Shown here piece by piece: positions 5,851 through 64,000 of a stretch of 64,000 nucleotides of DNA. Below the pieces are notes generated by a model. It was not told the origin of the DNA, made no database searches, and saw only the letters and a program-made list of their open reading frames with translations. Source of the DNA: Thermoleophilia bacterium (GTDB lineage: Bacteria; Actinomycetota; Thermoleophilia; UBA2241); the NCBI GenBank assembly GCA_035686425.1, contig DASRZL010000098.1:2761-66760 (forward strand), in the 5' to 3' direction. The translations under genes and the position numbers were made by a program. Numbering within the stretch: the stretch's first letter is position 1; every line of letters starts with the position of its first letter.

Positions 5851-5990
5851 CGCCGGGGCTCCGGCCGGCCCGTCCCCGGGCGTGTGGGCCGAGGGAAGGT
5901 CTTCGCCGCCCGCGCGCCCCTGGTGTAGCATCCCCGCGACAGGCGGGGCTGCCCGTGCGGCACTCGCACTCGTGACCGACAGGCGGCAGC

Positions 5991-48308: not shown

Positions 48309-50462
48309 CTAGCCGCCGGCAGCGGTCGGCGTAGTCGTCGGCGTCGGCGCAGGCGTCGTCGGCTTGGGCGTAGTCGGCGTGGGCTTGGGCGTCGTCGGCG
48401 TGGGCTTGGGCGTCGTCGGCTGCGGCTGCGGCGTGATGGTCTTGGTCGGGGTGGCGGTCGGCGACGCGCTATCGCTGGCCGACGGCGAAGCCGACGGCGA
48501 GGCCGACGTCTGCATCTTGCCCTCCCACGGGCTGAACGTCCACGGGTAGTCCTTGAAGCTCGGGTGCGATGCGCCCTTGAGCGCCGCGGCGAAGAACTTG
48601 GCCCACATCGGGGCCGAGTACGTGGCACCGTACGCGGGCATGGCAGAGCGCTCGTCGGCGTCGCCCATCCAGACGGCCCCCGCGAGCTGGGGCGTGTACC
48701 CCACGTACCAGAGGTCGGCTCCATCCTCGGTGGTCCCCGTCTTGCCGGCGCGCGGATACGGGAAGTACGAGCCCGTGGCCGAGCCGGTGCCCGACGAGGC
48801 CACGCGCTCGAGGCACTGTGTGACGACGCTGGCCACGCCGGCCGGGATGGCGCGCTTGCCCGCGGTCTTGGGCTTCCAGTCGACGCGCCCGCCGGGCATG
48901 ACCACACGGACGATCGCCTGCGGCCTGTGGCGGATGCCGCCGGCGGCCAGTGTCGCGTAGGCGTCCGCCATCTCGAGCGGTGTGACTCCGGACGTGCCCA
49001 GGGTGATGGACGGTACGGCGTCGAGCGGGCTGGTGATGCCCATGCGGTGCGCCGTATCCACGCTGTTCTTGGGGCCGACGTCGACGCTGAGCTGCGCGAA
49101 CACGACGTTGTCCGAGATCGTCGTCGCGGCGGAGACGCTCTCGGGGCCGCCGGGCCCGTCGCCGTTGACGACCCATGGCGCCGCGTAGGCGCCCATCGGG
49201 ATGATGATGGGGCTCTTGGACGAGTAGTACGTCGTGTCGGGGTTCATGCCCTGCTCGACCGCGGCAGTGAGGACGAAGGGCTTCATCGCCGAGCCTGGCT
49301 GGCGCTTGCCCTGCCAGGCGAGGTTGAACTTCTGCGTCTCGTAGTCGAGGCCGCCGACCATGGTGCGGATGTAGCCGTTGGCCGGGTCGATGGCGACGAG
49401 CGCCGCCGACGGCTTGAAGCCGAAATCGAGCGGTGACATGGTGCTCTTGATGATCTTGATGGCCTCTTTCTGCCAGTCCATGTCGATGCTCGTGTACACG
49501 CGCAGGCCGCCCTCGAAGACGGTGCGCGAGCCGTAGCGCTTGGTGAGCACGCGCGTCACGTAGTCGACGAAGTAGTCGGCCATGCTGTTGTTGGTGCTGG
49601 GCGGGTGCTTGTACACGCCCAGCTTGCTCCTCATGAGCTTGTCGGCGCGCGCCTGGCTGACGTACCCCTGATCGGCCAGCAACTGGAGGACGATGTTGCG
49701 GCGCTTGAGGGCCTGCTTGGGGTCCACCGTGGGGCTGAAGGCGCTCGGCGCCTTGGGCAGCGCGGCGAGCAGTGCTGCCTCCTTGATGGTGATCTTCGAC
49801 ACCGGCTTGTGGAAGTACGTCTGGGCCGCGGCCTGGACACCGTAGGCGCCGGCGCCGTAGGGCACGGTGTTGAGGTACTCGGTGAGGATCTTGTCCTTGC
49901 TCCACTGGTCCTCGAGCTGCCACGCCAGCACGGCCTCGCGGATCTTGCGCGTGTACGATTGCTCGTTGCCCACGTAGGCGTTCTTGATGTACTGCTCGGT
50001 GATGGTGGAGCCGCCCTGGACGACGCCCCCGGCCTTCACGTTGAGGATCACCGCGCGGGCGACTGCCTGGTAATCCACGCCGTGGTGCTCGTAGAAACGC
50101 TCGTCCTCGACGGCCACGGTGGCCTGCTTCATGATGTCCGGGATCTTGCCGCTCTTGACGAGCTCGCGGTTCTCCGCCCCATGCAATTTGGCGATGACCG
50201 CGCCGTTCCGGTCGTAGATGACCGTGTTGACGGCTGTCGGGTTCTTCTCAAGCTCCTCGAGGGACGGCAGATCGCGGGAGAGGGCATACATGGCGCCGGC
50301 GGCGACGGCCAGTCCGGCGATCATCGAGAGCAGGACGACGACGACAAAGATCTTCACGAACAGCCATTTGCGGCTGCTCGCCTTGGAGCGCTTCTTCTTG
50401 CGCTCGCGCTGGCGCCGTGGGAGGTCCTCGGGCCCTACGGTGTATCTCGTGTATTCAGCCAT
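48309..50462 (-). CDS. Class A penicillin-binding protein (PBP1A; transglycosylase + transpeptidase)
   Basis: EDERFYEH, GGSTITEQ, RKIRE; SAMK (SxxK), SDN, KTG; Pro/Thr tail. Confidence 0.95.
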   Translation of the reverse strand: MAEYTRYTVGPEDLPRRQRERKKKRSKASSRKWLFVKIFVVVVLLSMIAGLAVAAGAMYALSRDLPSLEELEKNPTAVNTVIYDRNGAVIAKLHGAENRELVKSGKIPDIMKQATVAVEDERFYEHHGVDYQAVARAVILNVKAGGVVQGGSTITEQYIKNAYVGNEQSYTRKIREAVLAWQLEDQWSKDKILTEYLNTVPYGAGAYGVQAAAQTYFHKPVSKITIKEAALLAALPKAPSAFSPTVDPKQALKRRNIVLQLLADQGYVSQARADKLMRSKLGVYKHPPSTNNSMADYFVDYVTRVLTKRYGSRTVFEGGLRVYTSIDMDWQKEAIKIIKSTMSPLDFGFKPSAALVAIDPANGYIRTMVGGLDYETQKFNLAWQGKRQPGSAMKPFVLTAAVEQGMNPDTTYYSSKSPIIIPMGAYAAPWVVNGDGPGGPESVSAATTISDNVVFAQLSVDVGPKNSVDTAHRMGITSPLDAVPSITLGTSGVTPLEMADAYATLAAGGIRHRPQAIVRVVMPGGRVDWKPKTAGKRAIPAGVASVVTQCLERVASSGTGSATGSYFPYPRAGKTGTTEDGADLWYVGYTPQLAGAVWMGDADERSAMPAYGATYSAPMWAKFFAAALKGASHPSFKDYPWTFSPWEGKMQTSASPSASPSASDSASPTATPTKTITPQPQPTTPKPTPTTPKPTPTTPKPTTPAPTPTTTPTAAGG
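48361..48423. repeat. 21-bp tandem repeat (x3) encoding the PTTPKPT linker of PBP1A
   Basis: GGCTTGGGCGT(A/C)GTCGGCGTG units read directly. Confidence 0.85.
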
Positions 50463-50509
50463 GACTCATCATTGTACTCGACAGGGGACGCGTCGGCCCC
50501 CGGCCGCGT

Positions 50510-51313
50510 TCACGCAGGCGCGCGGCTGGGGGAGTCGTCGCCGTCGCCGGAGTCTCCCGTGGCGACTTGCGTCTCCTTCTTCGGCTGGACGAAGCGGGCG
50601 AGGACGATCGACACCTCGTAGAGGATGTAGAGCGGCAGGAACATCGCCAGCATGGAGAAGGCGTCCTGGCTGGGGGTGATGAAGGCGGCGGACACGGCGA
50701 GGATGATCACCGCCCAGCGGCGGTTCTTGCGCAGGAACTTGTCGTCGACCACGCCGACCTTGGCCAGGAGCACGAGGATCACGGGGAGCTCGAAGACCAC
50801 GCCGAAGGCGAGGATGAAAAGCGCCATGAAGATGAAGTACTCGCTGGCGCGGAGCTGCACGTTGAAGTAGCCGGCGCTGAACGTCAGCAGGAACGCCAGG
50901 CCCTTGGGAAGGACCAGGAAGTAGCCCAGCGCCAATCCGGCGAAGAACAGCATGGACGAGGCGAAGACCACGGGGTAGAAGTAGCGTTTCTCGCCCTCGG
51001 TGAACGCGGGGGACAGGAACGCCCAGAGCTGCCAGATGAGGAACGGCGACGCCATGATGATGCCGCCGACGACCCACACCTTGAGGCTGACCATGAACGG
51101 CTCGGCCGGGCTGAACGTGGTGATCGTCTGCGCCGACTCGGGCAGACCGGGGACCTGGCGCAGAGGGTACAGCAGGATGTCGAACATGAAGTCGCTGAAG
51201 ATCGCCGCGAGGAGCACGCCGACGGTCACGGCGATCATGGACAGGAACAGGCGACGGCGGAGCTCGTCGAGGTGTTCGAACAGCGTCAGACGATCCTCGG
51301 CGCTGAGGGCCAC
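50510..51313 (-). CDS. tatC: Twin-arginine translocase subunit TatC
   Basis: LFEHLDELRRR, SPAEPF, WQLWAFLSPA, FELP, ITPSQD. Confidence 0.95.
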   Translation of the reverse strand: MALSAEDRLTLFEHLDELRRRLFLSMIAVTVGVLLAAIFSDFMFDILLYPLRQVPGLPESAQTITTFSPAEPFMVSLKVWVVGGIIMASPFLIWQLWAFLSPAFTEGEKRYFYPVVFASSMLFFAGLALGYFLVLPKGLAFLLTFSAGYFNVQLRASEYFIFMALFILAFGVVFELPVILVLLAKVGVVDDKFLRKNRRWAVIILAVSAAFITPSQDAFSMLAMFLPLYILYEVSIVLARFVQPKKETQVATGDSGDGDDSPSRAPA

Positions 51314-51317
51314 GCGG

Positions 51318-51794
51318 TCAGGCTCCCGTCGGGGGTCCGCCGGCCGTTCCGGCGCCGGCGGACACGGTGTCTTCGGGCGCCTCAGGCGCCTCGGGCGCCT
51401 CGGGCGCGACGGCGAGCGCCTCCGTCTCCGGCGTGACGGCAGGGGCCTCTGGACCCGGCGCCGTGGCGGGCGTCTCCGGCTCGGACGCGCCGGCGCCGGC
51501 GAGGCCGGCGGCCGCGGCCGCTCCGGACGCCGCCGCATCCTTGCCGGCGACCGGAGCCTCGATCGCCGACTTGAGGTCGACGCTCGACTTGAGGTCGCCG
51601 AAGGTGCCCTTGACCTCGTTGATCTGGTCTGTGACCTCGCTGAGGCCGAGCTCGGACTTGGCGGTCTCCGCCGCCTTGCGGAACTCGCGCACGCCCTTGC
51701 CCAGCGACCTGCCCATCTGCGGCAAGCGCTTGGGCCCGAAGACGAGCAGGGCGATGATGAGGACGACGATGATCTCGGTGGGACCTATGTTCAC
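51318..51794 (-). CDS. tatA: Twin-arginine translocase TatA/TatB subunit
   Basis: IGPTEIIVVLIIALLVFGPKRLPQMGRSLGKGVREF with a low-complexity tail. Confidence 0.9.
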   Translation of the reverse strand: MNIGPTEIIVVLIIALLVFGPKRLPQMGRSLGKGVREFRKAAETAKSELGLSEVTDQINEVKGTFGDLKSSVDLKSAIEAPVAGKDAAASGAAAAAGLAGAGASEPETPATAPGPEAPAVTPETEALAVAPEAPEAPEAPEDTVSAGAGTAGGPPTGA

Positions 51795-51964
51795 GTGGGG
51801 GGCACCTCTGACCGGGGGAATCGTGCCGCTCCATCGTACGAGCCGGAGGGCCGAAGTGCAACGCGGCCGCTTTCGGCAATCAAAGAAAGTGGCGCCGCAC
51901 AGGCCGAATCGGCGGGGGATGTCGTGATTACCCTGCACAGAACGGATATTCCGGGGTACCCCCA

Positions 51965-52010
51965 CCGGTTTGCGTGCAAGTTGCGTCCTGCAAACCGGCT
52001 TTGGTAGAGT
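51965..52010 (+). promoter_or_regulatory. nuo operon promoter with flanking 9-bp inverted repeat
   Basis: TTGCGT (51981) ... TG-G-TAGAGT (52005); CCGGTTTGC-N16-GCAAACCGG brackets the -35. Confidence 0.5.
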
Positions 52011-52065: not shown

Positions 52066-52434
52066 ATGACGAACGCATACCTCACTGACTGGTTGTATGT
52101 CTGGCTGTTCATCGTCGCCGGAGCGGGTCTGGTCGTCCTCATCCTGCTCTTCTCCAAGCTCATCAACCCGAGCCACCTCACAGCGGAGAAGCTGCAGCCG
52201 TACGAGTGCGGCATCCCGCCGGTCGGCAACCCGTGGCAGCCGTTCGCCGTACGGTACTTCGTGTTCGGACTCCTCTTCCTCGTCTTCGACGTGGAGGCGG
52301 CCTTCCTGTTCCCGTGGGCGATCGTCTTCCGCTCGCTGGGCGCAGCGGGGTTCATCGAGATGCTGTTGTTCATCGCGGTGCTCGCCTTCGGCCTGCTCTA
52401 CGCGTGGCGCAAGGGGGCCCTCGAGTGGGCATGA
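52066..52434 (+). CDS. nuoA: NADH-quinone oxidoreductase subunit A
   Basis: [20 protein letters not shown]. Confidence 0.95.
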
Positions 52435-52982
52435 GTGAGCGTGCCAAGACGATCCGCTACCCCAAGCTGGAGCATTTCAGCGAGCCGAACGTCATCACCA
52501 CCACCGCCGATTTCATCTTCAGCTGGGCGCGCTCGCACTCGGTCTTCCCGTTCACCTACGGCCTCGCCTGCTGCGCCATCGAGATGCTCAGCTCCGGGTT
52601 CGCCCGCTACGACGTCGCCCGGTACGGCATGGAGGTCTTTCGCCCCACGCCCCGACAGTGCGATCTCATGATCGTGGCGGGCACCGTCAACGAGAAGATG
52701 GCTCCAGTCCTCAAGCGCCTGTACGACCAGATGTCGGAGCCCAAGTGGGTCATCAGCATGGGCGCCTGCGCCACCAGCGGCGGGCCGTTCTACGACGGCT
52801 ACAACGTCGTCAACGGTGTCGACAAGATCGTGCCGGTCGACGTCTACATCCCCGGCTGCCCGCCGCGCCCCGAGGCGTTGTTCCAGGGCCTGCTGGAGTT
52901 GCAGGGCAAGATCCAGCAGCACAAGTTCGTCCCCGAGAAGCCGGCGGCGCCCGAGACGGCCGCCCCGGCCGTGGAGGCCTGA
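52431..52982 (+). CDS. nuoB: NADH-quinone oxidoreductase subunit B
   Basis: [24 protein letters not shown] (N2 ligands). Confidence 0.96.
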
Positions 52983-52986
52983 GCGC

Positions 52987-53481
52987 GTGGGCCTCACCGT
53001 CGGCAGCAACCCCATGAGCATGGACGCGATCGCCGAGCTGCTCGCCGAGCGCTTCGCCGGCGACCTCGCCGACGTGCGCATCCAGGAGCCGGACACCATC
53101 GTCGCCCGGGCGCCACGCGAGAAGCTCAAGGACCTCGCCGCGCGCCTCAAGGCGGACCCCGACGCCGGCTACGAGACGCTCAACTGGATCGCGGGCGTCG
53201 ACCGTCAGACCGGGTTCGAGAGCGTCTACCACGTGTACTCGTGGAAGACGAACACCTACCTCGAGCTGCACGTCGACCTGCCGCGCGAGAGGCCGGAGGT
53301 CGACACGGTCACCGCTGTCTGGCCGGCGGCCGACTGGCACGAGCGCGAGTCGTGGGACATGGTCGGCATCGTCTACGTCGGCCACCCCGACCTGCGCCGC
53401 ATCCTGCTCAAGGACGACTTCGTCGGCCACCCGCTGCGCAAAGACTACGTCGACCTCGCGGCGAACCACCCGCATGCCTGA
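52987..53481 (+). CDS. nuoC: NADH-quinone oxidoreductase subunit C
   Basis: ADWHERE.WDM.GI...GHPDLRRIL...F.GHPLRKDY. Start is GTG 52987 or ATG 53014. Confidence 0.93.
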   Translation: MGLTVGSNPMSMDAIAELLAERFAGDLADVRIQEPDTIVARAPREKLKDLAARLKADPDAGYETLNWIAGVDRQTGFESVYHVYSWKTNTYLELHVDLPRERPEVDTVTAVWPAADWHERESWDMVGIVYVGHPDLRRILLKDDFVGHPLRKDYVDLAANHPHA

Positions 53482-54688
53482 CCAGTTCGCCACCGCCGAG
53501 CCGGACGAAGCCGTGAAGCTCGCGCTGCGCCGTATCGAAGAGGCGACGGCGCGGGGCGAGGGCTCCGACGTCGACGGTCTCGCCTTCAACGAGGTCGTGG
53601 TCAACATGGGGCCGCAGCACCCCAGCACGCACGGCGTGCTGCGCCTGGTCGTGACTCTCGACGGCGAGCTCGTCAAGGACGTCATCCCGGTCATCGGCTA
53701 CCTGCACCGCTGCAAGGAGAAGCTCGCCGAGCGGCGCACGTACTTCCAGTACATCCCGATCGTCGACCGCACCGAGTACGTCGCCAGCATCAACTGCGAG
53801 TGGGCGTACGTGATGGCGGTCGAGAAGCTCGCCGGCATCCAGGTGACGCGGCGGGCGGAGTTCATCCGCGTCATCACCGGCGAGCTCATGCGCATCGCCA
53901 GCCACCTGGTGGCGGTCGGCACCTTCACCGCCGACCTCTCGCCGCTGGGGACGGCCATGGTGTTCTACATGTTCCGCGAGCGCGAACAGATCCTCGACCT
54001 CATGGAGCAGCTCACGGGCGCGCGCATGATGTTCAACTACTTCCGCTTCGGCGGCGTGCGCTACGACCTGCCTGACGGCTGGGTCGAGCGGTGTCGCGAC
54101 TTCCTCGCGAAGTTCCCGAAGCTCATCAAGGAGTACGAGGCCCTCGTCGACGACAACGCCATCTTCCTGCAGCGCACGCAGGGCAAAGGCGTCATCACGC
54201 AGCAGGACGTCGTCGACTACGGGATCACCGGTCCCAACGCGCGCGCGTCCGGCATCGACCTGGACCTGCGGCGCACGCGTCCGTACTCGGTGTATCCGGA
54301 GCTTGACTTCGCGCTCTGCACCGAGCAGCACGGCGACATCTTCGACCGCTACCGGGTGCGCATGGAAGAGATGCGCGAGAGCGTCAAGATCATCGAGCAG
54401 TGTCTGGATATGCTCCCGATGGGACCCGTGCAGGTTGGTTCGCTGCGCGCCCCGTACGTGATCACGCCGCCGCCCGGATCGTGCTACGTCGGCCAGGAGA
54501 ACCCGCGCGGCGAGTACGGCACCTACATCGAGAGCGACGGGTCGCGGTATCCGTACCGTCTCAAGTTCCGCGACCCCTGCTTCTGCAACCTGCAGATCTT
54601 CCCGAAGCTCCTCAGCGGCAACAAGATCGCCGATGCCGTCGCCATCTCGGGCAGCATCGACCTCGTGCTGGGAGGGATCGACCGCTAA
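53474..54688 (+). CDS. nuoD: NADH-quinone oxidoreductase subunit D
   Basis: NMGPQHPSTHGVLRL, GYLHR, DRTEY, ENPRGE, C-terminal D.VLGGIDR. Confidence 0.95.
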   Translation: MPDQFATAEPDEAVKLALRRIEEATARGEGSDVDGLAFNEVVVNMGPQHPSTHGVLRLVVTLDGELVKDVIPVIGYLHRCKEKLAERRTYFQYIPIVDRTEYVASINCEWAYVMAVEKLAGIQVTRRAEFIRVITGELMRIASHLVAVGTFTADLSPLGTAMVFYMFREREQILDLMEQLTGARMMFNYFRFGGVRYDLPDGWVERCRDFLAKFPKLIKEYEALVDDNAIFLQRTQGKGVITQQDVVDYGITGPNARASGIDLDLRRTRPYSVYPELDFALCTEQHGDIFDRYRVRMEEMRESVKIIEQCLDMLPMGPVQVGSLRAPYVITPPPGSCYVGQENPRGEYGTYIESDGSRYPYRLKFRDPCFCNLQIFPKLLSGNKIADAVAISGSIDLVLGGIDR

Positions 54689-54689
54689 G

Positions 54690-55808
54690 GTGGATATCTT
54701 CCTCGGCATCCTCCGTGCCATCCTCTTCGTCGTCATCGCGTACGCTGTGGTGTTCGTGGCGGCGCTGGTGAACATCCTCTTCGAGCGTCGCGTCCTTGCG
54801 TTCATGCAGGACCGCCTCGGTCCCAATCGAACGGGCCCGCAGGGCGTGCTGCAGAGCGTCGCCGACGCGTTCAAGATGATGGGCAAGGAGGACTTCCGGC
54901 CGCTCCTCGCCGACCCGTTCCTCTTCACGCTCGCGCCGGTGACGGTCATGATCGGCGCCGTGGCCGTCCAGCTCGTCGTGCCGTACACCGGCGGGCTCAT
55001 GGGGACGAGCCTCAACGTCGGCATCATCTTCCTCGTCGCGATCACGAGCTTCACGACCCTGTCGATCCTGCTCGGCGGCTGGTCGTCGCGCAACAAGTAC
55101 TCGCTCGTCGGAGCGCTGCGCGCCGCCGCCCAGATGATCAGCTACGAGATCCCGATGATCCTCGGCCTGCTCGTGGTGGCGATGATCGTCGGCTCGCTGC
55201 GCGTCGACGTGGTCGTCGCCTTCCAGGCCGGCTACGAGTGGATCGGCTTGTACGCGCCGTTCACCTTCCTCATCTTCTACATCGCCTCCATCGCCGAGCT
55301 GAACCGCGGCCCCTTCGACCTTCCCGAGTCCGAGTCGGAGCTCGTGTCCGGCTACGGCACCGAGTACTCGGGCATGCGCTTCGGCATGTTCTTCCTGAAC
55401 GAGTACGCCGGGATGACGATCATGTCCATGGTAGCCGTCACGCTGTTCTTCGGCGGCTGGATGGGGCCGGGCGCCGGCGCGATCCAGTTCTGGGGCGTCT
55501 CCTGGATCGGGCTGATCTGGTTCCTCGTCAAGACGTATGCGCTGGTCTTCGCGCTGGTCTGGATCAGGCTCTCGCTGCCGCGCCTCCAGGTCGACCAGCT
55601 CATGGCCTTCGCCTGGAAGATCCTCATCCCGCTCGGGCTCGTCAACATCCTCGCCACCGCGGCGATCATGCTGTGGGTGCCGAGCTGGAAGTGGGGCCTC
55701 GCGATCTTCAGCTGGGTCTCGTTCCTCGCCTTCGTCGGCCTCCTGGACCCCATCCTCAAGCGTCGCCTGCGCAAGCAGCGTGAGCGCCAGCCGGTGGTGA
55801 CTGCCTGA
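54690..55808 (+). CDS. nuoH: NADH-quinone oxidoreductase subunit H
   Basis: ERR.LA.MQ.R.GPNR, DAFK..GKED, SYE, NR.PFDLPESESELVSG. Confidence 0.95.
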   Translation: MDIFLGILRAILFVVIAYAVVFVAALVNILFERRVLAFMQDRLGPNRTGPQGVLQSVADAFKMMGKEDFRPLLADPFLFTLAPVTVMIGAVAVQLVVPYTGGLMGTSLNVGIIFLVAITSFTTLSILLGGWSSRNKYSLVGALRAAAQMISYEIPMILGLLVVAMIVGSLRVDVVVAFQAGYEWIGLYAPFTFLIFYIASIAELNRGPFDLPESESELVSGYGTEYSGMRFGMFFLNEYAGMTIMSMVAVTLFFGGWMGPGAGAIQFWGVSWIGLIWFLVKTYALVFALVWIRLSLPRLQVDQLMAFAWKILIPLGLVNILATAAIMLWVPSWKWGLAIFSWVSFLAFVGLLDPILKRRLRKQRERQPVVTA

Positions 55809-56569
55809 TGCTCGGCATGTTCAAGGCGATGCGCACGACGCTCAAGCATCTGCCCATGAAGAAGATCACGGTGCAGTACCCGGAGCAGCGGGAGGTACTG
55901 CCGGCGCGCAGCCGGGGTCTCTTCCGCGTGGTCATCGACCCCTCCAACGGCGAGCCCCGCTGCCGCTCGTGCACGCTGTGCGAGAGCAACTGCCCCGTCC
56001 AGGTGATCCGCGTGAACCACACGAGCAAGTACCTGCTGCCGGTGCCCAACGCGGCGCGCATCGCCGAGGCGCGCCTGGCCGCGCAGCAGGGCATCGAACT
56101 CAAGGACCTGCAGCCCGTGCTCGACGACTACTACGAGCACGGCACCGGCCTCATCGCCATGCTGCAGAACGCGCAGGAGGTCTACGGCTACCTGCCGCGC
56201 ATCGCCCTCCAGGAGATCAGCCTGCAAACGGGCGTCTCGCTCAGCCAGCTCTACGGCGTCTCGAGCTTCTACAACCAGTTCCGGCTCTCACCGGTCGGCG
56301 AGTACATCATCGACGTCTGCCACGGCACCGCCTGCCACGTCGCGGGGGCGGTCCAGATCACCGAGGCCTTGGAGGAGGAGCTCGGGGTCGCCGACGGCAA
56401 GACGACCACCGACATGAAGTTCACGCTCTCGTCGGTCGCCTGCATGGGCGCCTGCTCGCAGGCGCCCGTCATGCGCATCGGCGACCAGACCTACGGCGGT
56501 CTCACCCCTGACCAGACACGCAAGATCATCCGCGACCTCATGGAAGAGGTCGGCGGTACGAAGGGGTGA
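55808..56569 (+). CDS. nuoI/nuoE: Fusion: N-terminal half of NuoI (one CxxCxxCxxxCP) + NuoE/HydC [2Fe-2S] domain
   Basis: aa 1-70 read TVQYPE...RG...CRSCTLCESNCP. From about aa 97 it reads LQNAQEVYGYLP...SFY.QF, VCHGTACH, ACMGAC. Confidence 0.88.
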   Translation: MLGMFKAMRTTLKHLPMKKITVQYPEQREVLPARSRGLFRVVIDPSNGEPRCRSCTLCESNCPVQVIRVNHTSKYLLPVPNAARIAEARLAAQQGIELKDLQPVLDDYYEHGTGLIAMLQNAQEVYGYLPRIALQEISLQTGVSLSQLYGVSSFYNQFRLSPVGEYIIDVCHGTACHVAGAVQITEALEEELGVADGKTTTDMKFTLSSVACMGACSQAPVMRIGDQTYGGLTPDQTRKIIRDLMEEVGGTKG

Positions 56570-58482
56570 GCAGAAGCACCATGACTGACGACATCACCAC
56601 CCCGCGCCCCGACACCGAGGGCCGCAACGTCAGCGTCGCCGCGCGTCCGGGCGGAGGCTACAACGTCAAGGTCTGCGCCGGCACGGCCTGCTTGTTCGCC
56701 GGCTCGATGGCCGTGTACGACGCCTTCGTCCAGGAGGTCCAGACCGCCGGGCTCGGCGACAAGGTCGAGCTGAGCCTCATCGGCTGCCACGGCCTCTGTT
56801 CGATGAGCCCTGTCGTGGTGCTCAGCGACGACACGCTGTACGGCCACCTCAAGCCCAAGGACGTCGCCAAGGTCGTCGAGGAGCACCTGAAGGGCGGCCA
56901 GCCTGTCGAGCGCTTCCTCTACAAGGACGCGCAGACCGGCGAGCGCATCCGAAACTGGAAGGACATCGGGTTCTACAGGCTGCAGACGCGCATCGCGCTG
57001 CGCGACGTCGGCGTCATCAACCCGGAGACCATCGACGCCTATATCGCCGTCGGCGGCTACGAGGCCGCCAGGATGGCGCTCACCGAGAAGACGCCCGAGT
57101 GGATCATCGAGCACGTCACCGACTCGGGTATCCGCGGTCGCGGCGGCGCGGGGTTCCCGACCGGCGTCAAGTGGAAGTTCGCCAATCAGTCCAAGAGCGA
57201 CGAGAAGTACCTCATCTGCAACGCCGACGAGGGCGACCCCGGGGCGTTCATGGACTGCTCGATCCTCGAGGGCGACCCGCACGTCGTCATCGAGGGCATG
57301 ATCATCGGCAGCTACGCCATCGGCGCGCACGAGGGCTACGTGTACGTGCGCGCCGAGTACCCGACGGCCGTCAAGCGCCTCACCATGGCGGTCGCCGCCG
57401 CTGAGGAGCGCGGCTTCCTGGGCAAGGACGTCTTCGGCACCGGCTGGGAGTTCAACGTCCACCTCAAGCTCGGCGCCGGCGCGTTCGTCTGCGGTGAGGA
57501 GACGGCGCTCATCGCCTCCATCGAGGGCAAGCGCGGCATGCCGCGCACGCGGCCGCCGTTCCCTGCGGTCTCGGGCCTCTGGGGCAAGCCCACGAACATC
57601 AACAACGTCGAGACCTTCTCGAACATCCCGTGGATCATCAAGAACGGCGCCCAGGCCTACTCCGCGCTCGGCGCCGAGACCAGCCGCGGCACGAAGGCCT
57701 TCAGCCTCGCCGGCAAGGTGGTCAACGGCGGCCTCGTCGAGGTGCCCATGGGATCGAGCCTCCGGCATCTGATCTTCGACGTCGGCGGCGGCATCAAGGA
57801 CGGCAAGAAGTTCAAGGCCGTGCAGCTCGGCGGCCCGTCCGGCGGGTGCGTGCCGGCGAGCCTGCTCGATACGCCGGTCGACTACGAGAGCCTGGCCGCG
57901 ACCGGCGCCATCGTCGGCTCCGGCGGCATGGTCGTGGTCGACGAGGAGACCTGCATGGTCGACCTGGCGCGCTTCTTCCTCGACTTCACGCAGAAGGAGT
58001 CGTGCGGCAAGTGCGTCCCCTGCCGCCTCGGCACCAAGCGCATGCTCGAGACGCTCGACCGCATCAGGAAGGGCGATGGGCGCGAGGGAGACATCGAGCT
58101 GCTCGAGGAGATGGGCCACTACATCATCGAAGGCAGCCTGTGCGCCCTCGGCGGGACCGCCCCGAACCCCGTGCTCACCACGATCAAGTACTTCCGCGAC
58201 GAGTACGAGGCCCACATCCGCGAGAAGCGGTGTCCGGCCGGCAAGTGCAAGGAGCTGATCACCTACTACATCGACGCCGAGGCCTGCACCGGCTGCACCC
58301 TGTGCGCCAAGAAGTGCCCCACCTTGTGCATCACCGGCGAGAAGAAGCAGCTGCACGTCATCGACGCGGCCGACTGCATCAAGTGCGACACCTGCCGCCA
58401 GGTCTGCAAGTTCGACGCCGTCAAGGTGCGCTCGGGCATCGAGCACGCAGTGGCCGGCGCCGGCGAAGGAGCTGAGGCCTGA
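56566..58482 (+). CDS. nuoF: NuoF/HydB-type FMN/NAD(H) subunit with extra N-terminal [2Fe-2S] and C-terminal 2x[4Fe-4S] domains
   Basis: CAGTAC...GCHGLC, GRGGAGFP, NADEGDPGAFMD, GAFVCGEETAL, ESCGKCVPC, CTGCTLC..CP / CIKCDTC..C. Confidence 0.92.
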   Translation: MSRSTMTDDITTPRPDTEGRNVSVAARPGGGYNVKVCAGTACLFAGSMAVYDAFVQEVQTAGLGDKVELSLIGCHGLCSMSPVVVLSDDTLYGHLKPKDVAKVVEEHLKGGQPVERFLYKDAQTGERIRNWKDIGFYRLQTRIALRDVGVINPETIDAYIAVGGYEAARMALTEKTPEWIIEHVTDSGIRGRGGAGFPTGVKWKFANQSKSDEKYLICNADEGDPGAFMDCSILEGDPHVVIEGMIIGSYAIGAHEGYVYVRAEYPTAVKRLTMAVAAAEERGFLGKDVFGTGWEFNVHLKLGAGAFVCGEETALIASIEGKRGMPRTRPPFPAVSGLWGKPTNINNVETFSNIPWIIKNGAQAYSALGAETSRGTKAFSLAGKVVNGGLVEVPMGSSLRHLIFDVGGGIKDGKKFKAVQLGGPSGGCVPASLLDTPVDYESLAATGAIVGSGGMVVVDEETCMVDLARFFLDFTQKESCGKCVPCRLGTKRMLETLDRIRKGDGREGDIELLEEMGHYIIEGSLCALGGTAPNPVLTTIKYFRDEYEAHIREKRCPAGKCKELITYYIDAEACTGCTLCAKKCPTLCITGEKKQLHVIDAADCIKCDTCRQVCKFDAVKVRSGIEHAVAGAGEGAEA

Positions 58483-58484
58483 CC

Positions 58485-60959
58485 ATGGCGACGACGGTGG
58501 AGAACGTGCCGCAGACCACGCCGCGCCCCGGCCAGATCACCCTGACCGTCGACGGTCAGGAGGTGATCTGCGAGCGCGGCGACACGATCCTCGACGCGGC
58601 GCAGCGCATCGGCATCCACATCCCGACGCTCTGCTACGAGCCGCGGCTGCCGGCGACGGCCGCCTGCCGCATGTGCATCGTCGAGGTCGAGGGCGCCCGC
58701 AAGATGATCCCGAGCTGCTCGGCCGCGGTCTCGGACGGCATGGTCGTGCGTACCGACACCGAGAAGGTCCGCGCCATGCGGCACCTCTACCTCGAGCTGC
58801 TGCTCAGCGACCACAACTCGTTTTGCACGCCGCCGTGCCGCGACGCCTGCCCGACGCACATCAAGATCCCGCAGTTCCTCGACTACATCGCGCACAAGGA
58901 CTACAAGAACGGTGTGCGCAAGCTGCGCGAGGACCTGCCCTTCCCGGCCGTGCTCGGGCGCGTCTGCCCGCGGCCGTGCGAGGGCCCGTGCCGCCGGCAG
59001 CTCGTCGAGCATCCCATCACCATCTGCCAGCTGCACCGCTTCATGGCCGATCAGACCATCGACGAGGAGCAGACCGGCGAGCTGCTGCTGCCGGTCGAGC
59101 CGAAGGCCGACACCGGCAAGAAGATCGCCATCGTCGGCGGTGGGCCGGCCGGCCTAGCCGCCGCCTTCTATGCCCGGCTCGAGGGGCACTCGGTCAAGAT
59201 CTTCGAGGCCCTGCCCAAGCCGGGCGGCATGCTGCGCTACGGCATCCCGAGCTACCGCCTGCCGCGCGACCTCCTGGACAAGGAGATCAACGTGCTGTGG
59301 CGCTTGGGCGTCGAGCTCCAGGTCAACAGCCGGCTCGGCGCCGACTACCAGCTCGAGGACCTCACGGCCGAGTACGACGCCGTGTTCCTCGCCCTCGGCG
59401 CCTTCAACAGCAACGACATGCGCATCCCCGGTGAGGACGCCGACGGCGTGGTCACGGCCGTCGACTTCCTCGGCGAGCTCGAAGTGACCGGGGCCGTGCA
59501 CGTGGGCGACAAGGTCGCCGTGATCGGCGGCGGCTTCACCGCCATGGACGCCTGCCGCACCAGCATCCGCAAGGGCGCGAAAGAGGTCACGTGCCTCTAC
59601 CGGCGCTCACGAAAAGAGATGCCGGCTCACGTCACCGAGGTCGACGAGGCCGAGGAGGAGGGCGTCAAGCTGGAGCTTCTCATCGCCCCGGTGCGCGTGC
59701 TCGCCGACGAGCAGAACAAGGTCACCGGCATCGAGATGCAGCGCATGGAGCTCGGCGAGCCTGATGCCTCCGGCCGCCGCCGGCCGGTACCGATCGAGGG
59801 CTCCGAGTTCATCATCGAGTGCGACCAGGTCATCGCCGCCGTCGGCCAGTTCCCCAAGCTCGACGGCACCAGCGAGGAGCAGGGCGTCAAGCGCACCAAG
59901 TGGCGCACCATCCAGGTCGACGACTGGACGTTCCAGACCGAGGACCCGCGCGTGTTCGCCGGCGGCGACGCCGTGCTCGGCGCGCAGACGGTGATCCAGG
60001 CGGTCGCCCAGGGCAAGAAGGCCGCCTGGAGCATGGATGCCTACTTACGCGGCGCCGACATGACCGAGGTCTCGCAGTCGCTCGCCGAGCTCAAGGCGAC
60101 GCCGTTCTTCCACGCGCTGAGCGCCAAGACCGACCTCGACCCACGGATCTCCCGCATGGCCGAGCTCCCGCCGGTGTTCATCGACATGACCACGGACGTG
60201 ACGCACCCGAGCCCGCCGGCCGAGATGCCCAAGCTCGGACCCGACGCCCGCACGACGAACTTCGAGCAGATCGAGCTCGGGTTCAGCGAGGCCGAGGCCG
60301 TACGCGGCGCCGAGCTCTGCCTGGATTGCTACTGTCCGGCCAGCGGCAAGTGCGACCTGCAGCGCTACGGCATCGAGTACGAGGTCTTCAAGAACCGCTT
60401 CCACGGCGGCGACGCCCACGACTACCCGGCCGACTTCCGCCACGACTTCATCATGCGCGAGCCCAACCGCTGCATCAATTGCGGCCGCTGCGTGCGCGTC
60501 TGCCGTATGGAGGTCGGATCGAGCTGCTACGACAACATGGACCGCGGTTTCGACACCATCGTGAGCACCGCCGACAACCTGCCGCTGCAGCTGGTCGGCT
60601 GCGTGAGCTGCGGCAAATGCGCCGAGACGTGCCCCACGGGTTCCATCGAGACCAACCCGCGCATCCTCGGCACTTACGACCTCGACGAGAGCCGCTGCAT
60701 CTTCTGCGGCGAGTGCGTCGAGGTCTGCCCCTACGACGCGCTCGAGCAGTCAGACTTCTTCGAGCTCGCCGGCTACAGCCGCACGGCCATGGCGCGCGAG
60801 TCCCTGTACGTGCGCGAGCCGCGCCCCGTCGACCCGTTGCGCGAGACGGTCAAGGACCTCGTCCCGCACGTGCACGACGCCGAGCTCGGCCGCGGCTGGG
60901 TGTGGGAGCCCATGAAGGACGATCCCATCCCGCTCGACGACCCGGAGGACGTGAGCTGA
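58485..60959 (+). CDS. Multidomain Fe-S flavoprotein: NuoG/HydA N-terminal [2Fe-2S] + GltD/NfnA-like FAD/NADPH domain + 2x[4Fe-4S] + C-terminal half of NuoI
   Basis: PTLC..ACRMC..PSC; PCRDACP/CPRPCEGPC; GGGPAG; GGGFTAMD, YRRSR; CINCGRC, CVSCGKC; then YDLDESRCIFCGECVEVCP..FELAGYSR. Confidence 0.88.
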   Translation: MATTVENVPQTTPRPGQITLTVDGQEVICERGDTILDAAQRIGIHIPTLCYEPRLPATAACRMCIVEVEGARKMIPSCSAAVSDGMVVRTDTEKVRAMRHLYLELLLSDHNSFCTPPCRDACPTHIKIPQFLDYIAHKDYKNGVRKLREDLPFPAVLGRVCPRPCEGPCRRQLVEHPITICQLHRFMADQTIDEEQTGELLLPVEPKADTGKKIAIVGGGPAGLAAAFYARLEGHSVKIFEALPKPGGMLRYGIPSYRLPRDLLDKEINVLWRLGVELQVNSRLGADYQLEDLTAEYDAVFLALGAFNSNDMRIPGEDADGVVTAVDFLGELEVTGAVHVGDKVAVIGGGFTAMDACRTSIRKGAKEVTCLYRRSRKEMPAHVTEVDEAEEEGVKLELLIAPVRVLADEQNKVTGIEMQRMELGEPDASGRRRPVPIEGSEFIIECDQVIAAVGQFPKLDGTSEEQGVKRTKWRTIQVDDWTFQTEDPRVFAGGDAVLGAQTVIQAVAQGKKAAWSMDAYLRGADMTEVSQSLAELKATPFFHALSAKTDLDPRISRMAELPPVFIDMTTDVTHPSPPAEMPKLGPDARTTNFEQIELGFSEAEAVRGAELCLDCYCPASGKCDLQRYGIEYEVFKNRFHGGDAHDYPADFRHDFIMREPNRCINCGRCVRVCRMEVGSSCYDNMDRGFDTIVSTADNLPLQLVGCVSCGKCAETCPTGSIETNPRILGTYDLDESRCIFCGECVEVCPYDALEQSDFFELAGYSRTAMARESLYVREPRPVDPLRETVKDLVPHVHDAELGRGWVWEPMKDDPIPLDDPEDVS

Positions 60960-61468
60960 TGCCCGGCGGCGACTTCCATCCCTGGTTCTTCGTCGTCGTG
61001 GCTGCGTGGGTGCTCGTCTGCGCCCTCGGCGTCGTCCTGTTCAAGAAGATCATGTACTCCGCCGTCTCGATGGTGTTCTGCTTCCTCGGCGTCGCCTTCG
61101 CCTACGCGCTGCTCAACGCCCCCCTGGTGGCGGTCATCCAGATCCTCGTGTACGTCGGCGCCATCTCGGTCGTCATCATCTTCGCCATCATGCTCACCGA
61201 GGTCCAACACGGTGGGTACGAGCTGTTCTTCAACCGGCAGACGGCCGTCGCCGCGGCCGCGGCGCTCATCGGCGCCGCGGTGCTCGCGATCGTCTCTCTC
61301 TCCGCCGACATCGGCCCGATCGGCGACAAGTCGCTGACGCCGGGCCTCCGCCCGCTCTCCAAGCTCATCTTCGACCGCTACGTGCTCCCGTTCGAGCTGG
61401 TCTCGCTCGTGCTCGTGGCGGCGATGATCGGCGCGATCGTCCTGGCGACTCGCGAGAGGGAGCGCTGA
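60959..61468 (+). CDS. nuoJ: NADH-quinone oxidoreductase subunit J
   Basis: QILVYVGAISVVIIFAIML and PFELVSLVLVAAMIGAIVL. TGATG overlap. Confidence 0.93.
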   Translation: MPGGDFHPWFFVVVAAWVLVCALGVVLFKKIMYSAVSMVFCFLGVAFAYALLNAPLVAVIQILVYVGAISVVIIFAIMLTEVQHGGYELFFNRQTAVAAAAALIGAAVLAIVSLSADIGPIGDKSLTPGLRPLSKLIFDRYVLPFELVSLVLVAAMIGAIVLATRERER

Positions 61469-61776
61469 TGAACGCCCTTTACTGGTGGCTGCTGCTCGCC
61501 TTTCTGCTCTTCTGCATCGGCGCGTTCGGCGTGCTCGCGCGCCGCAACATCATCCTGGTCGTCATGAGCCTCGAGATCATGCTCAACGCGGTCAACATCG
61601 CCCTCGTCGCGATCGCCAACTTCCGCGGCGGCGCGCGCGGCGCCGGCACGCTGTTCGCCCTGTTCATCATCGTGCTGGCAGCCGCCGAAGTGACGGTGGG
61701 CCTCGCCATCGTGATCGCCAACTACCGCAACAGGAGCACCGTGCAGACCGACACCTACGACGAGCTCAAGGGCTAG
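61468..61776 (+). CDS. nuoK: NADH-quinone oxidoreductase subunit K
   Basis: RRN..V.MSLEIMLNAVN and LAAAEVTVGLAI. Confidence 0.95.
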   Translation: MNALYWWLLLAFLLFCIGAFGVLARRNIILVVMSLEIMLNAVNIALVAIANFRGGARGAGTLFALFIIVLAAAEVTVGLAIVIANYRNRSTVQTDTYDELKG

Positions 61777-61789: not shown

Positions 61790-63703
61790 GTGGAGGGGAC
61801 CCAGTACATGAAGATCGCCGTGGCGCTGATCGTGCTGCTGCCGCTGGCCGGCTTCATCATCACACTGCTGCTCGGCAAGCGTTTCTTCCGCGCCAAGGCG
61901 CACATCCTGCCGGTCACCGTGGTCACCATCACGGCCGTGCTGTCGATCTATGCGTTCGAGTGGGTCTTCCGGCATCCGGAGGAGGCCTTCATCTGGAACG
62001 CGTTCACGTGGGTGGCCGCAGGCCGGTTCACGGTGGAGTGGGGTTTCCTCGTCGACCCGCTCACCGGGATCATGCTCCTCGTCGTCGGCATCATCGGCAT
62101 GCTCGTGCACTACTATTCCATCGGCTATATGAAGGACGACCCCGGGTACTACCGGTTCTTCGCCTATCTGAACCTGTTCATGTTCGCGATGTTCGTGCTC
62201 ATCCTCGCGAACAACTACCTGCTCCTCTTCCTCGGCTGGGAAGGAGTGGGCCTCTGCTCGTACCTGCTCATCTCGTTCTGGTTCCGCAAGAAGAGCGCCA
62301 GCCAGGCAGGCAAGAAGGCGTTCCTGGTCAACCGCGTCGGCGACTTCGGCTTCACGCTGGGCATGTTCCTGATCTTCGTCACCACCGGCACGCTGCAGTT
62401 CACCGGCGTCTTCGACAAGGCCGAGATGATCGGCTCGGGCACGCTGCTCTGGATCTGCCTGCTGCTCTTCACCGGCGCCGTGGGCAAGAGCGCCCAGTTC
62501 CCGCTGCACGTATGGCTGCCGGACGCCATGGAAGGCCCCACGCCGGTCAGCGCGCTCATCCACGCCGCCACCATGGTCAACGCCGGCGTCTACATGGTGG
62601 CGCGCTCGTACCCGCTGTTCCTTCACTCCGACGTGGCGATGCTCATCGTGATGATCGTCGGCACGTTCACCGCGATCTACTCCGCGTACATCGCCATCAC
62701 CCAGAACGACATCAAGAAGGTGATCGCCTACTCCACCGTATCGTCACTCGGTTTCATGTTCCTGGCCCTCGGCGCCGGGGCGTGGGCGGCCGGCATCTTC
62801 TACCTCTTCGCGCACGGCTTCTTCAAGGGCCTCCTGTTCCTCTGCTCGGGCTCGGTGATCCACGCCATGAGCGGCGAACAGGACATGCGCCAGATGGGCG
62901 GGTTGCGCAAGAAGATCCCCATTACGTTCTGGACGATGCTCATCGGCGCCATCGCTCTCATCGGCGTCTTCCCCTTCGCCGGGTTCTGGGCCAAGGACGA
63001 GATCCTCGGCGGGGCCTTTGTCGGCGGGTACTACGTGGTGTGGGCGGTCGGCATCGTCACGGCCTTCCTGACGGCCGTGTTCGCCTTCCGCCTCATCTTC
63101 ATGACGTTCTTCGGCGAGTCCCGCGCCTCCGAAGAGGTGCAGCACCACATCCACGAGTCCCCCAAGGTCATGACCATCCCGCTGGTGCTTCTGGCCATCC
63201 CGTCGGCGCTGTTGGGAGCCGTCGCCGGCTTCCCGCCGGAGAAGGGCTGGATCCACACGTTCCTCGAGCCGGTCTTCTACGATGTCGAGCACGAGGAGTT
63301 CTACTGGGTCGGCGAGGGCGGTGGCCTCATGCTGTTCTCGGTCGCCGTGGCCCTGCTGGGCGTCTACGTGGCCTACGTGCTGTACATCAGGCGTACCGAG
63401 GTGCCGGGGCGCATGGCGAAGCGTCTGCCGATCGCCTACAAGGCATCGCTCAACAAGATGTACATGGACCAGGTCTACGAAGTGGTGCCTATCCGCAGCA
63501 CCTTGGCCCTCGCCAGTTGGCTGTGGACCTTCTTCGACGTGAAGATCATCGACGGCGCCGTCAACGGGCTCGCCTGGCTCTGGGGCTGGTTCGGCGACAA
63601 GCTGCGGCCCATCCAGACCGGCCACGTGCAGAACTACGTGATGTACGTGTTCGGCGGCATGATCGTGCTCGTCGTGGTCGTCTCCTGGGTGTGGGGGGGC
63701 TGA
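61790..63703 (+). CDS. nuoL: NADH-quinone oxidoreductase subunit L
   Basis: GWEGVGLCSYLLI, GKSAQFPLHVWLPDAMEGPTPVSALIHAATMV, AHGFFKGLLFL. Confidence 0.96.
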   Translation: MEGTQYMKIAVALIVLLPLAGFIITLLLGKRFFRAKAHILPVTVVTITAVLSIYAFEWVFRHPEEAFIWNAFTWVAAGRFTVEWGFLVDPLTGIMLLVVGIIGMLVHYYSIGYMKDDPGYYRFFAYLNLFMFAMFVLILANNYLLLFLGWEGVGLCSYLLISFWFRKKSASQAGKKAFLVNRVGDFGFTLGMFLIFVTTGTLQFTGVFDKAEMIGSGTLLWICLLLFTGAVGKSAQFPLHVWLPDAMEGPTPVSALIHAATMVNAGVYMVARSYPLFLHSDVAMLIVMIVGTFTAIYSAYIAITQNDIKKVIAYSTVSSLGFMFLALGAGAWAAGIFYLFAHGFFKGLLFLCSGSVIHAMSGEQDMRQMGGLRKKIPITFWTMLIGAIALIGVFPFAGFWAKDEILGGAFVGGYYVVWAVGIVTAFLTAVFAFRLIFMTFFGESRASEEVQHHIHESPKVMTIPLVLLAIPSALLGAVAGFPPEKGWIHTFLEPVFYDVEHEEFYWVGEGGGLMLFSVAVALLGVYVAYVLYIRRTEVPGRMAKRLPIAYKASLNKMYMDQVYEVVPIRSTLALASWLWTFFDVKIIDGAVNGLAWLWGWFGDKLRPIQTGHVQNYVMYVFGGMIVLVVVVSWVWGG

Positions 63704-63757: not shown

Positions 63758-64000
63758 ATGAGCTGGAGCGACCAGATCGGCTTCCCGCTGCTCTCGATCA
63801 TCACGTTCCTGCCTCTGGCGGGCGTGCTCCTCATCCTGCTCTTCGGCCGCGGCAAGCCGGCCGTCTACAAGGTCATCTCGCTCATCGTGACCCTGGCGGC
63901 CTTCGCTCTCTCGGTGTGGATGCTCTTCGCCTTCAAGATCAAGCTGCCCGGCATGCAGTTCGCGGAGAACGTCACCTGGATCAAGGCACTGAACATCAAG
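63758..64000 (+). CDS. nuoM: NADH-quinone oxidoreductase subunit M (5' part; truncated by window end)
   Basis: My translation from ATG 63758: MSWSDQIGFPLLSIITFLPLAG...MQFAENVTWIKALNIK. Follows nuoL. Confidence 0.85.
   Translation, partial: MSWSDQIGFPLLSIITFLPLAGVLLILLFGRGKPAVYKVISLIVTLAAFALSVWMLFAFKIKLPGMQFAENVTWIKALNIK

Follow-up and report, generated by a model that had tools for sequence, protein, structure and literature searches.

A Split NuoI Flanking a Bfu-Type Flavoprotein Module in Complex I-Type Operons of Uncultured Thermoleophilia

INTRODUCTION

In the usual description, complex I consists of a small number of fixed modules, and NuoI is a connector made of one chain; the complex is also regarded as essentially NADH-specific. 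Here, we analyze a complex I-type (nuo) operon in a 64,000-nucleotide stretch of DNA from a Thermoleophilia bacterium (assembly GCA_035686425.1, contig DASRZL010000098.1), the whole of which is referred to as the window. Where nuoI would be expected, this operon encodes the N-terminal half of NuoI (N-half) fused to a NuoE subunit, then a NuoF-like subunit, and then a protein that ends with the C-terminal half of NuoI (C-half).

Several systems that resemble this one in part have been described. Schut et al. (2022) predicted Nuo-Bfu complexes in Geobacter, Deferribacteres, Planctomycetes, and Nitrospirae, with 14 subunits (A to N) in which BfuABC replaces NuoEFG, and proposed menaquinone as their third substrate; NuoI and Actinobacteria are not mentioned in that text (PMC9304861). 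The Bfu family and its Stn and Nfn members are covered by the same study (PMC9304861) and by Kumar et al. (2023; PMC10482914) and Li et al. (2025; PMC11829005). Degli Esposti (2015) described Mbx-like operons with a GltD-related flavoprotein in the place of NuoI (PMC4758237). The initial annotation of the window stated that no complex I with the present architecture was known, and our full-text literature searches likewise brought up no paper describing a split NuoI or an operon of this architecture.

RESULTS AND DISCUSSION

NuoI is encoded in two pieces, each fused to a redox subunit

The operon lies on the forward strand, and the list of open reading frames (ORFs) gives the order nuoA-B-C-D-H-(NuoI N-half+NuoE)-(NuoF-like)-(NuoG N-terminal part+GltD+NuoI C-half)-J-K-L-M, with the ORFs exactly where the initial annotation had placed them. 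Its features are as follows.

52066..52434, +, nuoA (ORF list, start codon refined)
52431..52982, +, nuoB (translation; N2 ligand motifs including PGCPP)
53014..53481, +, nuoC (ORF list, start codon refined)
53474..54688, +, nuoD (translation; kept in related loci)
54690..55808, +, nuoH (stop and next start share one base, TGATG)
55808..56029, +, NuoI N-half, residues 1-74 of the 253-aa protein (TIGR01971, PDB NuoI chains)
56030..56107, +, linker, residues 75-100 (about 26), joining the NuoI N-half to the NuoE domain (no family match)
56108..56569, +, NuoE/BfuC domain (PF01257, NF005722)
56566..58482, +, BfuB-type NuoF, 638 aa (Pfam domains, PDB chain scores)
58485..60644, +, Nfn/Stn-type BfuA, residues 1-720 of the 824-aa protein (Pfam, NCBIfam, PDB chains)
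60645..60959, +, NuoI C-half and tail, residues 721-824 of the 824-aa protein (NF004537, Nqo9)
60959..61468, +, nuoJ (start overlaps the preceding stop, TGATG)
61468..61776, +, nuoK (ORF list; related loci)
61808..63703, +, nuoL (ORF list; related loci)
63758..64000, +, nuoM, cut by the window end (ORF list; nuoM and nuoN follow in related loci)

In the 253-aa protein, residues 1-74 match TIGR01971 at positions 2-66 of 121 only (E value, 1.9e-13; 50.1 bits versus a family cutoff of 113), and the significant PDB matches of the first 100 residues are NuoI/NDUFS8 chains only (best E value, 3.5e-10), with the N-half aligned to residues 7-71 of Thermus Nqo9. This half contains the TVQYPE segment and the first ferredoxin motif, C52-x2-C55-x2-C58-x3-C62-P, the cysteines of which are coded at 55961-55993, as first reported. 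The C-half, approximately residues 724-790 of the 824-aa protein, matches NF004537 at positions 103-162 of 204 (57.9 bits versus a cutoff of 163; whole-protein E value, 1e-15) and aligns with residues 85-129 of Nqo9 and 97-137 of Arabidopsis NDUFS8. It contains the strand RILGTYDLD, the second motif (C738-x2-C741-x2-C744-x3-C748-P), the FELAGYSR segment, and a variable tail. Only residues 72-84 of Nqo9, or 89-96 of the Arabidopsis protein, are covered by neither half; all that is missing from a canonical NuoI is the 8-13-residue loop separating the two CxxCxxCxxxCP motifs, and the strand beside the missing loop is kept in each half (VIRVNH in the N-half and RILGTYDLD in the C-half). When the stitched halves were used as the query, intact NuoI proteins of 163-183 aa were retrieved with 36-44% identity and 93-98% query coverage. 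The two motifs, which the NuoI family has together in one polypeptide scoring above the cutoff, were found one per chain. Judged by these alignments, the two pieces tile a complete NuoI minus the inter-motif loop, which confirms the split. All three parts of the first description—an ORF that begins as NuoI and continues as NuoE (PF01257; E value, 1.8e-46), an 824-aa protein that ends as NuoI, and a break in the loop between the ferredoxin motifs—are borne out by these matches, and the domain scan against NuoI models that had been suggested along with it assigned each half to its own part of the model. A small correction concerns the position of the C-terminal segment: the segment itself was correctly recognized, but its start at 60672 was one codon early, as Y731 starts at 60675.

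The reading frames are tightly joined. The TGA stop of nuoH (55806-55808) shares one base with the ATG at 55808 of the 253-aa ORF (55808-56569); this ORF overlaps the 638-aa ORF (56566-58482; alternative start, ATG at 56581) by GTGA; 2 bases separate the latter from the 824-aa ORF (58485-60959), whose stop overlaps the nuoJ ATG at 60959 in a second TGATG. The clean overlaps and abutments noted in the initial annotation were thus all found. The GC content at third codon positions (GC3) of these ORFs is 0.94-0.96, similar to that of neighboring genes. In the window, as in all related loci, the N-half begins where nuoH stops and the C-half finishes where nuoJ begins. As read from the translations, NuoB has the N2 ligands, including the tandem CC, and NuoD carries GPQHPSTHG near its N-terminus and ends in ...LVLGGIDR, with NiFe-ligand cysteines at neither end. 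NuoH, J, K, L, and M of the complex I Q- and P-modules are present in the window, and nuoN is additionally present in related loci.

The inserted genes encode a Bfu-type flavin module

The initial annotation described the genes between the NuoI halves as an inserted electron-input module of plain NuoE, NuoF, and GltD types. The inserted module stands, but its type needs revision. The NuoE domain (residues ~100-245) is complete, with PF01257 over residues 104-244 and an above-cutoff match to NF005722 (NuoE; 143.7 bits), and it is a thioredoxin-like [2Fe-2S] domain with four invariant cysteines (C171, C176, C212, and C216). The 638-aa protein scores 793-806 bits against the solved BfuB chains of NiFe-HydABCSL (7t2r_B), Stn (8oh5_B and 9bov_B), and NfnB (9n5u_B), versus ~400 bits for canonical NuoF. 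It matches PF01257 at 27-106, PF01512, PF10531 (SLBB), PF10589, and Fer4 at 567-620, corresponding to an N-terminal thioredoxin-like [2Fe-2S] domain, a flavin mononucleotide (FMN)/NADH domain, an N3 [4Fe-4S] region, and a C-terminal 2x[4Fe-4S] ferredoxin domain. All domains that define BfuB, and the C1 [2Fe-2S] domain that defines BfuC, are therefore present in the window.

The 824-aa protein aligns with 9bov_A (636 bits; residues 19-744), StnC (8oh5_C; 566 bits), and NfnA (9n5u_A; 525 bits). Its homology to StnC/NfnA extends from residue 17 to ~727-744 and is followed by NuoI sequence. This BfuA part comprises a [2Fe-2S] domain (17-113), a GltD insert (114-530) with two [4Fe-4S] and flavin adenine dinucleotide (FAD)/NADPH sites, a connector, an all-Cys [4Fe-4S] site (C612-C623), and two complete ferredoxin motifs (C663-C673 and C706-C716), with the cysteines conserved. 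The position of the GltD insert after the [2Fe-2S] domain, a hallmark of the Nfn-Bfu/Stn group, is supported by PF14691 and PF07992 over residues 114-510. The C-terminal Fdh/NuoG-like (molybdopterin-type) domain of BfuA was not found in the 824-aa protein (StnC/NfnA have 963-1178 aa); the molybdopterin-like bulk of NuoG is absent from this protein, a further correction to the first reading. Because BfuB scores ~800 bits, as opposed to ~400 for NuoF, and because the 824-aa protein is homologous to StnC/NfnA, the inserted module is identified by homology as a flavin module of the Bfu type, similar to HydBC/StnAB, whose BfuA is of the Nfn/Stn type and bears GltD. In the alignments, the NuoI C-half stands where BfuA otherwise has its Fdh-like C-terminal domain.

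The arrangement is conserved among uncultured Thermoleophilia

We surveyed the fusions in one genome per species and derived identities from alignments of 47 and 31 sequences. The N-half+NuoE fusion was found in ~55 species-level metagenome-assembled genomes (MAGs) with 65-98% identity, nearly all of which are labeled Thermoleophilia or Actinomycetota; two contigs with this fusion bear other bin labels. When the C-terminal 164 aa were used as a query, all matches were fragments (105-278 aa); therefore, the breadth of the C-half fusion was read from loci. The order nuoD-H-(N-half+NuoE)-F-(G'+GltD+C-half)-J-K-L-M-N is kept in every sufficiently long locus of the ~55 genomes, and no other nuoI was found between nuoH and nuoJ in their operons. 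The genome search for both fusions that the initial annotation had proposed thus revealed the first one in ~55 genomes and the second one in their longer loci. One related MAG is labeled UBA2241, an order recovered from permafrost and anoxic lake hypolimnia. At least 120 protein clusters at 90% identity contain the N-half+NuoE fusion, almost all of them full length (250-253 aa), although source annotations call this protein NuoE only.

All eight NuoI cysteines are invariant, with the four in the N-half present in 47 of 47 sequences. In the 253-aa protein, mean pairwise identity is 86% for the N-half, 66% for the linker, and 83% for the NuoE domain, making the N-half the best and the linker the least conserved part; in the 824-aa protein, the C-half (residues 721-775) has a mean pairwise identity of 83% and the C-terminal tail 62%. 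The NuoI halves are therefore conserved as strongly as the catalytic domains. The synteny in ~55 genomes, the eight invariant cysteines, and the difference between the N-half (86%) and the linker (66%) indicate a maintained design, as had been proposed.

Could the split be an artefact—a mis-assembly, a frameshift, or the pseudogenised operon of one MAG? The source organism is uncultured, and several related long-read MAGs do have frameshift-like breaks in these genes, seen as split high-scoring segment pairs (L002, L007, L017, L040, L051, L054, and others; mostly MFD-series MAGs). Since the flanks of these breaks stay 85-95% identical at the protein level, however, they look like sequencing or assembly errors rather than pseudogenes. 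Furthermore, the identical architecture and junctions recur in species-level genomes from many studies and in the protein clusters counted above, the frames are open, and GC3 is like that of the neighbors. Finally, contigs assembled from short reads of independent soil and sediment samples extend across 55500-56461, 60449-60922, and 60636-61200; they show few mismatches and cover both fusion junctions. The artefact explanation is effectively refuted. Metatranscriptome contigs (at least 90% identity) cover the nuoH/N-half junction, the linker-to-NuoE stretch, and segments on either side of the BfuA-to-C-half stretch; they count as evidence of presence only, as DNA carry-over and close relatives are inseparable.

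In the same contig comparisons, the depth of metagenome and metatranscriptome contigs was up to ~40-fold higher at 57028-57600, the NuoF FMN-binding region, with many loose ends. This rise comes from contigs of other organisms recruited at a highly conserved stretch and is no feature of the genome.

The split NuoI occurs in other gene contexts

Besides the window type, both NuoI halves were found in four further gene contexts, and they occur together in every context seen. In L066 (GC content, 49%), the order is nuoH-(N-half+NuoE)-(BfuB fused to GltD)-(HoxU-like+C-half)-J-K-L-M-N, within 1321-6023; this is a distant lineage (41% identity) with the same junction as in the window (CPTGALRFNERILEGYRLDLSSC). 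GltD is here at the C-terminus of the NuoF-like subunit, which is without the 2x[4Fe-4S] ferredoxin domain, and the C-half is carried by a short 265-aa HoxU-like protein. L067 (97-7726) and L068 (GC content, 70%) represent a pyruvate:ferredoxin oxidoreductase cluster, porD-porA-(N-half-like+NuoE)-BfuB-(BfuA+GltD+C-half+PorB thiamine pyrophosphate [TPP] domain), in which the N-half of BfuC is without the TVQYPE segment and a 1060-aa protein combines BfuA, GltD, the C-half motif, and the PorB TPP domain. L074 (5487-10423; an NCBI MAG assembly) has nuoB-(N-half+truncated NuoE)-NuoF-(BfuA+GltD+C-half), where NuoE is truncated to its N-terminal helical part, without the [2Fe-2S] domain, and NuoF has the canonical size; nuoD, nuoH, and nuoJ were not found nearby. 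A 53%-identical C-half protein (P0300) is assigned by NCBI to a Ktedonobacterales MAG, and in L075, which belongs with this variant, unrelated genes follow the C-half gene. The fourth context is another C-half lineage (P0294/P0297).

Across architectures, the halves share 42-55% pairwise identity (E values, 1e-9 to 4e-26), which is consistent with common descent of the split. The planctomycete Bfu loci that served as controls have neither NuoI half: L058-L063 (Phycisphaerae, Sedimentisphaerales, and Pirellulales) encode a ~785-aa BfuC-BfuB fusion followed by a 520-544-aa BfuA-like protein ending in CPTGALAF. Judged from these gene contexts, the split NuoI is specific neither to the window operon nor even to complex I. 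Three other candidates for NuoI halves, P0139, P0146, and P0241, were rejected; they have a non-NuoI N-terminal segment with a single ferredoxin-type motif before the NuoE domain.

The two halves are likely to reassemble

The best overall explanation, to which we assign a probability of about 0.75, is an 11-subunit complex I-type pump with an in-frame insert of a Bfu-type module in nuoI, in which the NuoI halves reassemble and the whole acts as an NAD(P)H-linked menaquinone enzyme. In the clostridial 2[4Fe-4S] ferredoxin fold and in Nqo9 of the Thermus peripheral arm, each cluster is held by three cysteines of one motif and one of the other. Motifs 1 and 2 of BfuA align with the two complete motifs of StnC; thus, the third motif of the 824-aa protein is left without a partner in its own chain. 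The N-half motif on the NuoE fusion is also partnerless in its own chain, which makes one orphan motif per chain. Given these orphan motifs, the co-occurrence of the halves in five contexts, and their joint absence from the control Bfu loci, the two halves are strongly implied to come together as one 2[4Fe-4S] domain, and this is the best-supported reading. Their proximity is made plausible by two structures: in NfnABC, the N-terminal domain of the NuoE-like subunit contacts the domain that the C-half replaces here (PMC11829005), and the tail of E. coli NuoI touches NuoE, NuoF, and NuoG (PMC8357420).

Several observations weigh against this explanation. A single-sequence AlphaFold model of residues 606-824 alone was uninformative (predicted local distance difference test [pLDDT] score, 33; predicted template modeling [pTM] score, 0.15). 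The Pfam dicluster models also span BfuA motif 2 and the third motif (706-752), making cis pairing formally possible. The B3/B4 domain is missing in L066 and the NuoE [2Fe-2S] (C1) domain in L074. A second intact nuoI is possible, as the view is of loci rather than whole genomes. Finally, two short contigs, L072 (694 bp) and L073 (1047 bp; coverage, 1.7x, recorded for this contig only), are 82-89% identical to the window along the nuoH tail and in the first 26-29 N-half codons and then, just past the TVQYPE-coding stretch, switch abruptly to a canonical intact nuoI of actinobacterial (L072) or proteobacterial (L073) type. Such an abrupt loss of similarity is typical of chimeras, and these contigs were probably joined wrongly at this conserved stretch, although they may instead be true relatives whose NuoI is intact.

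If the third motif paired in cis with BfuA motif 2, the halves would remain unpaired, the N-half would be only an anchor to the membrane arm, and its motif would bind a cluster with other ligands, or none. Fer4_7, Fer4_9, and Fer4_10 matches to residues 706-752 (motifs 2 and 3), the NF006221 match to 706-768, and the top PDB matches of the C-terminal part, polyferredoxins whose successive motifs pair in series, all fit such an arrangement. However, it would orphan motif 1, since motifs 1 and 2 align residue by residue with the StnC/NfnA motifs. It would also leave unexplained why both orphans retain NuoI-specific flanks (TVQYPE; YDLD...FELAGYSR) and tile one NuoI, why they always co-occur and are both missing from the control Bfu loci, and why the four cysteines of the N-half are invariant in 47 sequences. 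We consider cis pairing unlikely.

On the other hand, the halves might be relics, with a separate intact NuoI serving the membrane arm and the Bfu/Nfn module acting as a co-transcribed soluble transhydrogenase. Soluble Stn/Nfn-Bfu enzymes do exist, some Actinobacteria MAGs have canonical 14-type operons with an intact NuoI (L069), and L072 and L073 join a similar nuoH tail to an intact nuoI. Nevertheless, relics would not keep eight of eight cysteines and 83-86% identity while the linker and tail drift to 62-66%, nor would they keep the translationally coupled TGATG junctions. Moreover, the window protein has no Fdh-like domain, through which soluble Stn/Nfn enzymes form tetramers, and the operons of the ~55 genomes hold no other nuoI between nuoH and nuoJ. 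Thus, this possibility is very improbable, more so than cis pairing.

Proposed electron route and function

Through the split, the first NuoI motif and the NuoI N-terminal segment form a new N-terminus of BfuC, and the second motif and C-terminal segment come ~8 residues after the last ferredoxin motif of BfuA. The reassembled halves would form clusters N6a and N6b, each ligated by both polypeptides, and would tie both ends of the soluble module to the membrane arm. In Nfn-Bfu, electrons follow the path FAD-A7-A6-A3-A2-A1 to the B1/FMN/C1 site, and A4/A5 are an off-path branch (PMC11829005). Because the C-half starts ~8 residues past the CP of BfuA motif 2, which is taken to contribute to A4, we propose that the reassembled NuoI domain extends this side branch, a dead end in Nfn-Bfu, and that electrons could pass from A4 through N6a/N6b to N2 in NuoB and on to menaquinone.

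The split NuoI, the FMN subunit, and GltD are common to all architectures, whereas the Bfu extras vary. As the former parts are invariant, the most conservative function is electron exchange, in either direction, between the quinone pool and both NADH and NADPH, and the enzyme is likely a menaquinone oxidoreductase that pumps protons and uses both nucleotides; reverse operation, yielding NADPH, is also conceivable. Bifurcation does not appear to be a conserved property of the split-NuoI family, given the Bfu extras missing in L066 and L074. The window lineage, however, has the full BfuB/BfuC equipment as well as nearby ferredoxin-linked genes; thus, confurcation with reduced ferredoxin is possible there, and the enzyme may possibly be ferredoxin-linked and confurcating as well.

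A more far-reaching suggestion, which we offer tentatively and regard as rather doubtful, is a four-way redox hub, in which a bifurcating or confurcating Nfn/Stn module would be wired to a proton-pumping menaquinone reductase via two-chain clusters. NADH would react at FMN, NADPH at FAD, and ferredoxin at the C-terminal clusters of BfuB, and the split ferredoxin would be a portable connector, reused to plug the module into pyruvate:ferredoxin oxidoreductase (L067) and a NuoB-only partner (L074).

The ferredoxin-linked genes are at two places in the window. At 40340-43133, an indolepyruvate:ferredoxin oxidoreductase alpha subunit (666 bits, above the cutoff) is followed by a short ORF, and at 45685-47637, a 650-aa protein partially matches aldehyde:ferredoxin oxidoreductase (123 bits, below the cutoff). 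These genes suggest a metabolism that is ferredoxin-linked and probably anaerobic or facultative.

Origin of the arrangement

The closest intact NuoI visible in gene context is P0312, which is 42% identical to the N-half and 49% identical to the C-half and has the ELAGYSR segment in common with the latter; it is encoded in an A-B-C-D-H-I-J operon without E, F, and G (L071). Cutting 56030-60644 from the window restores exactly this order. The simplest history would be the insertion of a bfuC-bfuB-bfuA operon in the loop-coding part of nuoI in an 11-subunit operon; gene fission followed by separate fusions could have led to the same arrangement. The ORF list, the Pfam/NCBIfam scans of the three inserted proteins, and the junctions gave no sign of a mobile element, intein, or programmed frameshift, with no search aimed at them.

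Other genes in the window

Three genes on the minus strand (48309-51965), upstream of and divergent from the nuo operon, were identified by eye from their translations: a class A penicillin-binding-protein-like protein with a long Pro/Thr-rich C-terminal tail, a TatC-like protein with a ~90-residue Pro/Arg-rich N-terminal extension, and a TatA-like protein with an Ala/Pro/Glu-rich tail. Farther away, paralogous DltB/MBOAT-like membrane acyltransferases (3029-4672 and 5991-7430) flank an ORF for a PatB-like (SGNH) O-acetyltransferase (4333-5850); the region 3029-7430 looks like a duplicated cell-wall O-acylation cassette.

Significance and comparison with known systems

The locus would represent a new way to add an input module to an enzyme complex, by inserting the whole module in the loop of a ferredoxin-fold gene. 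If the halves pair, each connecting cluster would be built from two polypeptides, coupling cofactor insertion, subunit docking, and completion of the electron wire, and the split NuoI would be a natural test case for inter-subunit Fe-S cluster assembly. An NADPH-binding GltD and a Bfu-type core would sit directly on a complex I-type pump. The Nuo-Bfu idea of Schut et al. is a prediction (PMC9304861), and the present natural fusion, which is abundant and apparently transcribed, offers a concrete target for biochemistry and cryo-electron microscopy. It is carried by uncultured Thermoleophilia that are widespread in soils, sediments, and anoxic waters and whose energy metabolism is little studied.

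Like the predicted Nuo-Bfu complexes, the window operon combines the nuo membrane and Q-modules with a Bfu-type BfuB/BfuC core instead of plain NuoE/NuoF. However, its module lies between nuoH and nuoJ, inside a split nuoI, rather than replacing NuoEFG of 14 subunits; in addition, a GltD/NADPH domain is present in its BfuA, where no domain of the Fdh/molybdopterin-like kind was detected. The inserted module itself resembles StnABC/NfnABC (8oh5, 9bov, and 9n5u; PMC10482914 and PMC11829005) in its three subunits, its gene order, a BfuB match of ~800 bits, and the GltD insert, all-Cys [4Fe-4S] site, and two complete ferredoxin motifs of BfuA (residues 17-727). Where those proteins end in an Fdh-like domain, with roles in tetramerisation and off-path clusters, the window protein ends in the NuoI C-half. 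Two further differences are the N-half carried by BfuC and the location of the three genes within a nuo operon.

Without its insert, the window operon would have the same gene order as the 11-subunit complex I (nuoABCDHIJKLMN, without an N-module). Operons of that type, in contrast, hold a single intact nuoI and do not encode a dedicated flavoprotein input of their own. Compared with canonical NuoI/Nqo9/NDUFS8 (TYKY), the halves are colinear and share TVxYPxE, the two CxxCxxCxxxCP motifs, and FE[LM]..Y.R; the canonical protein, however, is one polypeptide of ~160-220 aa, whereas the window has two, each fused to a redox subunit, and has lost the inter-motif loop. Mbx-like complexes also attach a GltD-type NAD(P)H-binding flavoprotein to a complex I-like membrane complex, but there GltD reportedly substitutes for NuoI, without a NuoE/F-type module, whereas the window operon keeps a split NuoI and has GltD inside a Bfu-type module. 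Complex I with an alternative, Bfu-type input module has been predicted before; what appears to be new here is the joining of a Bfu/Nfn-type input module through a split NuoI.

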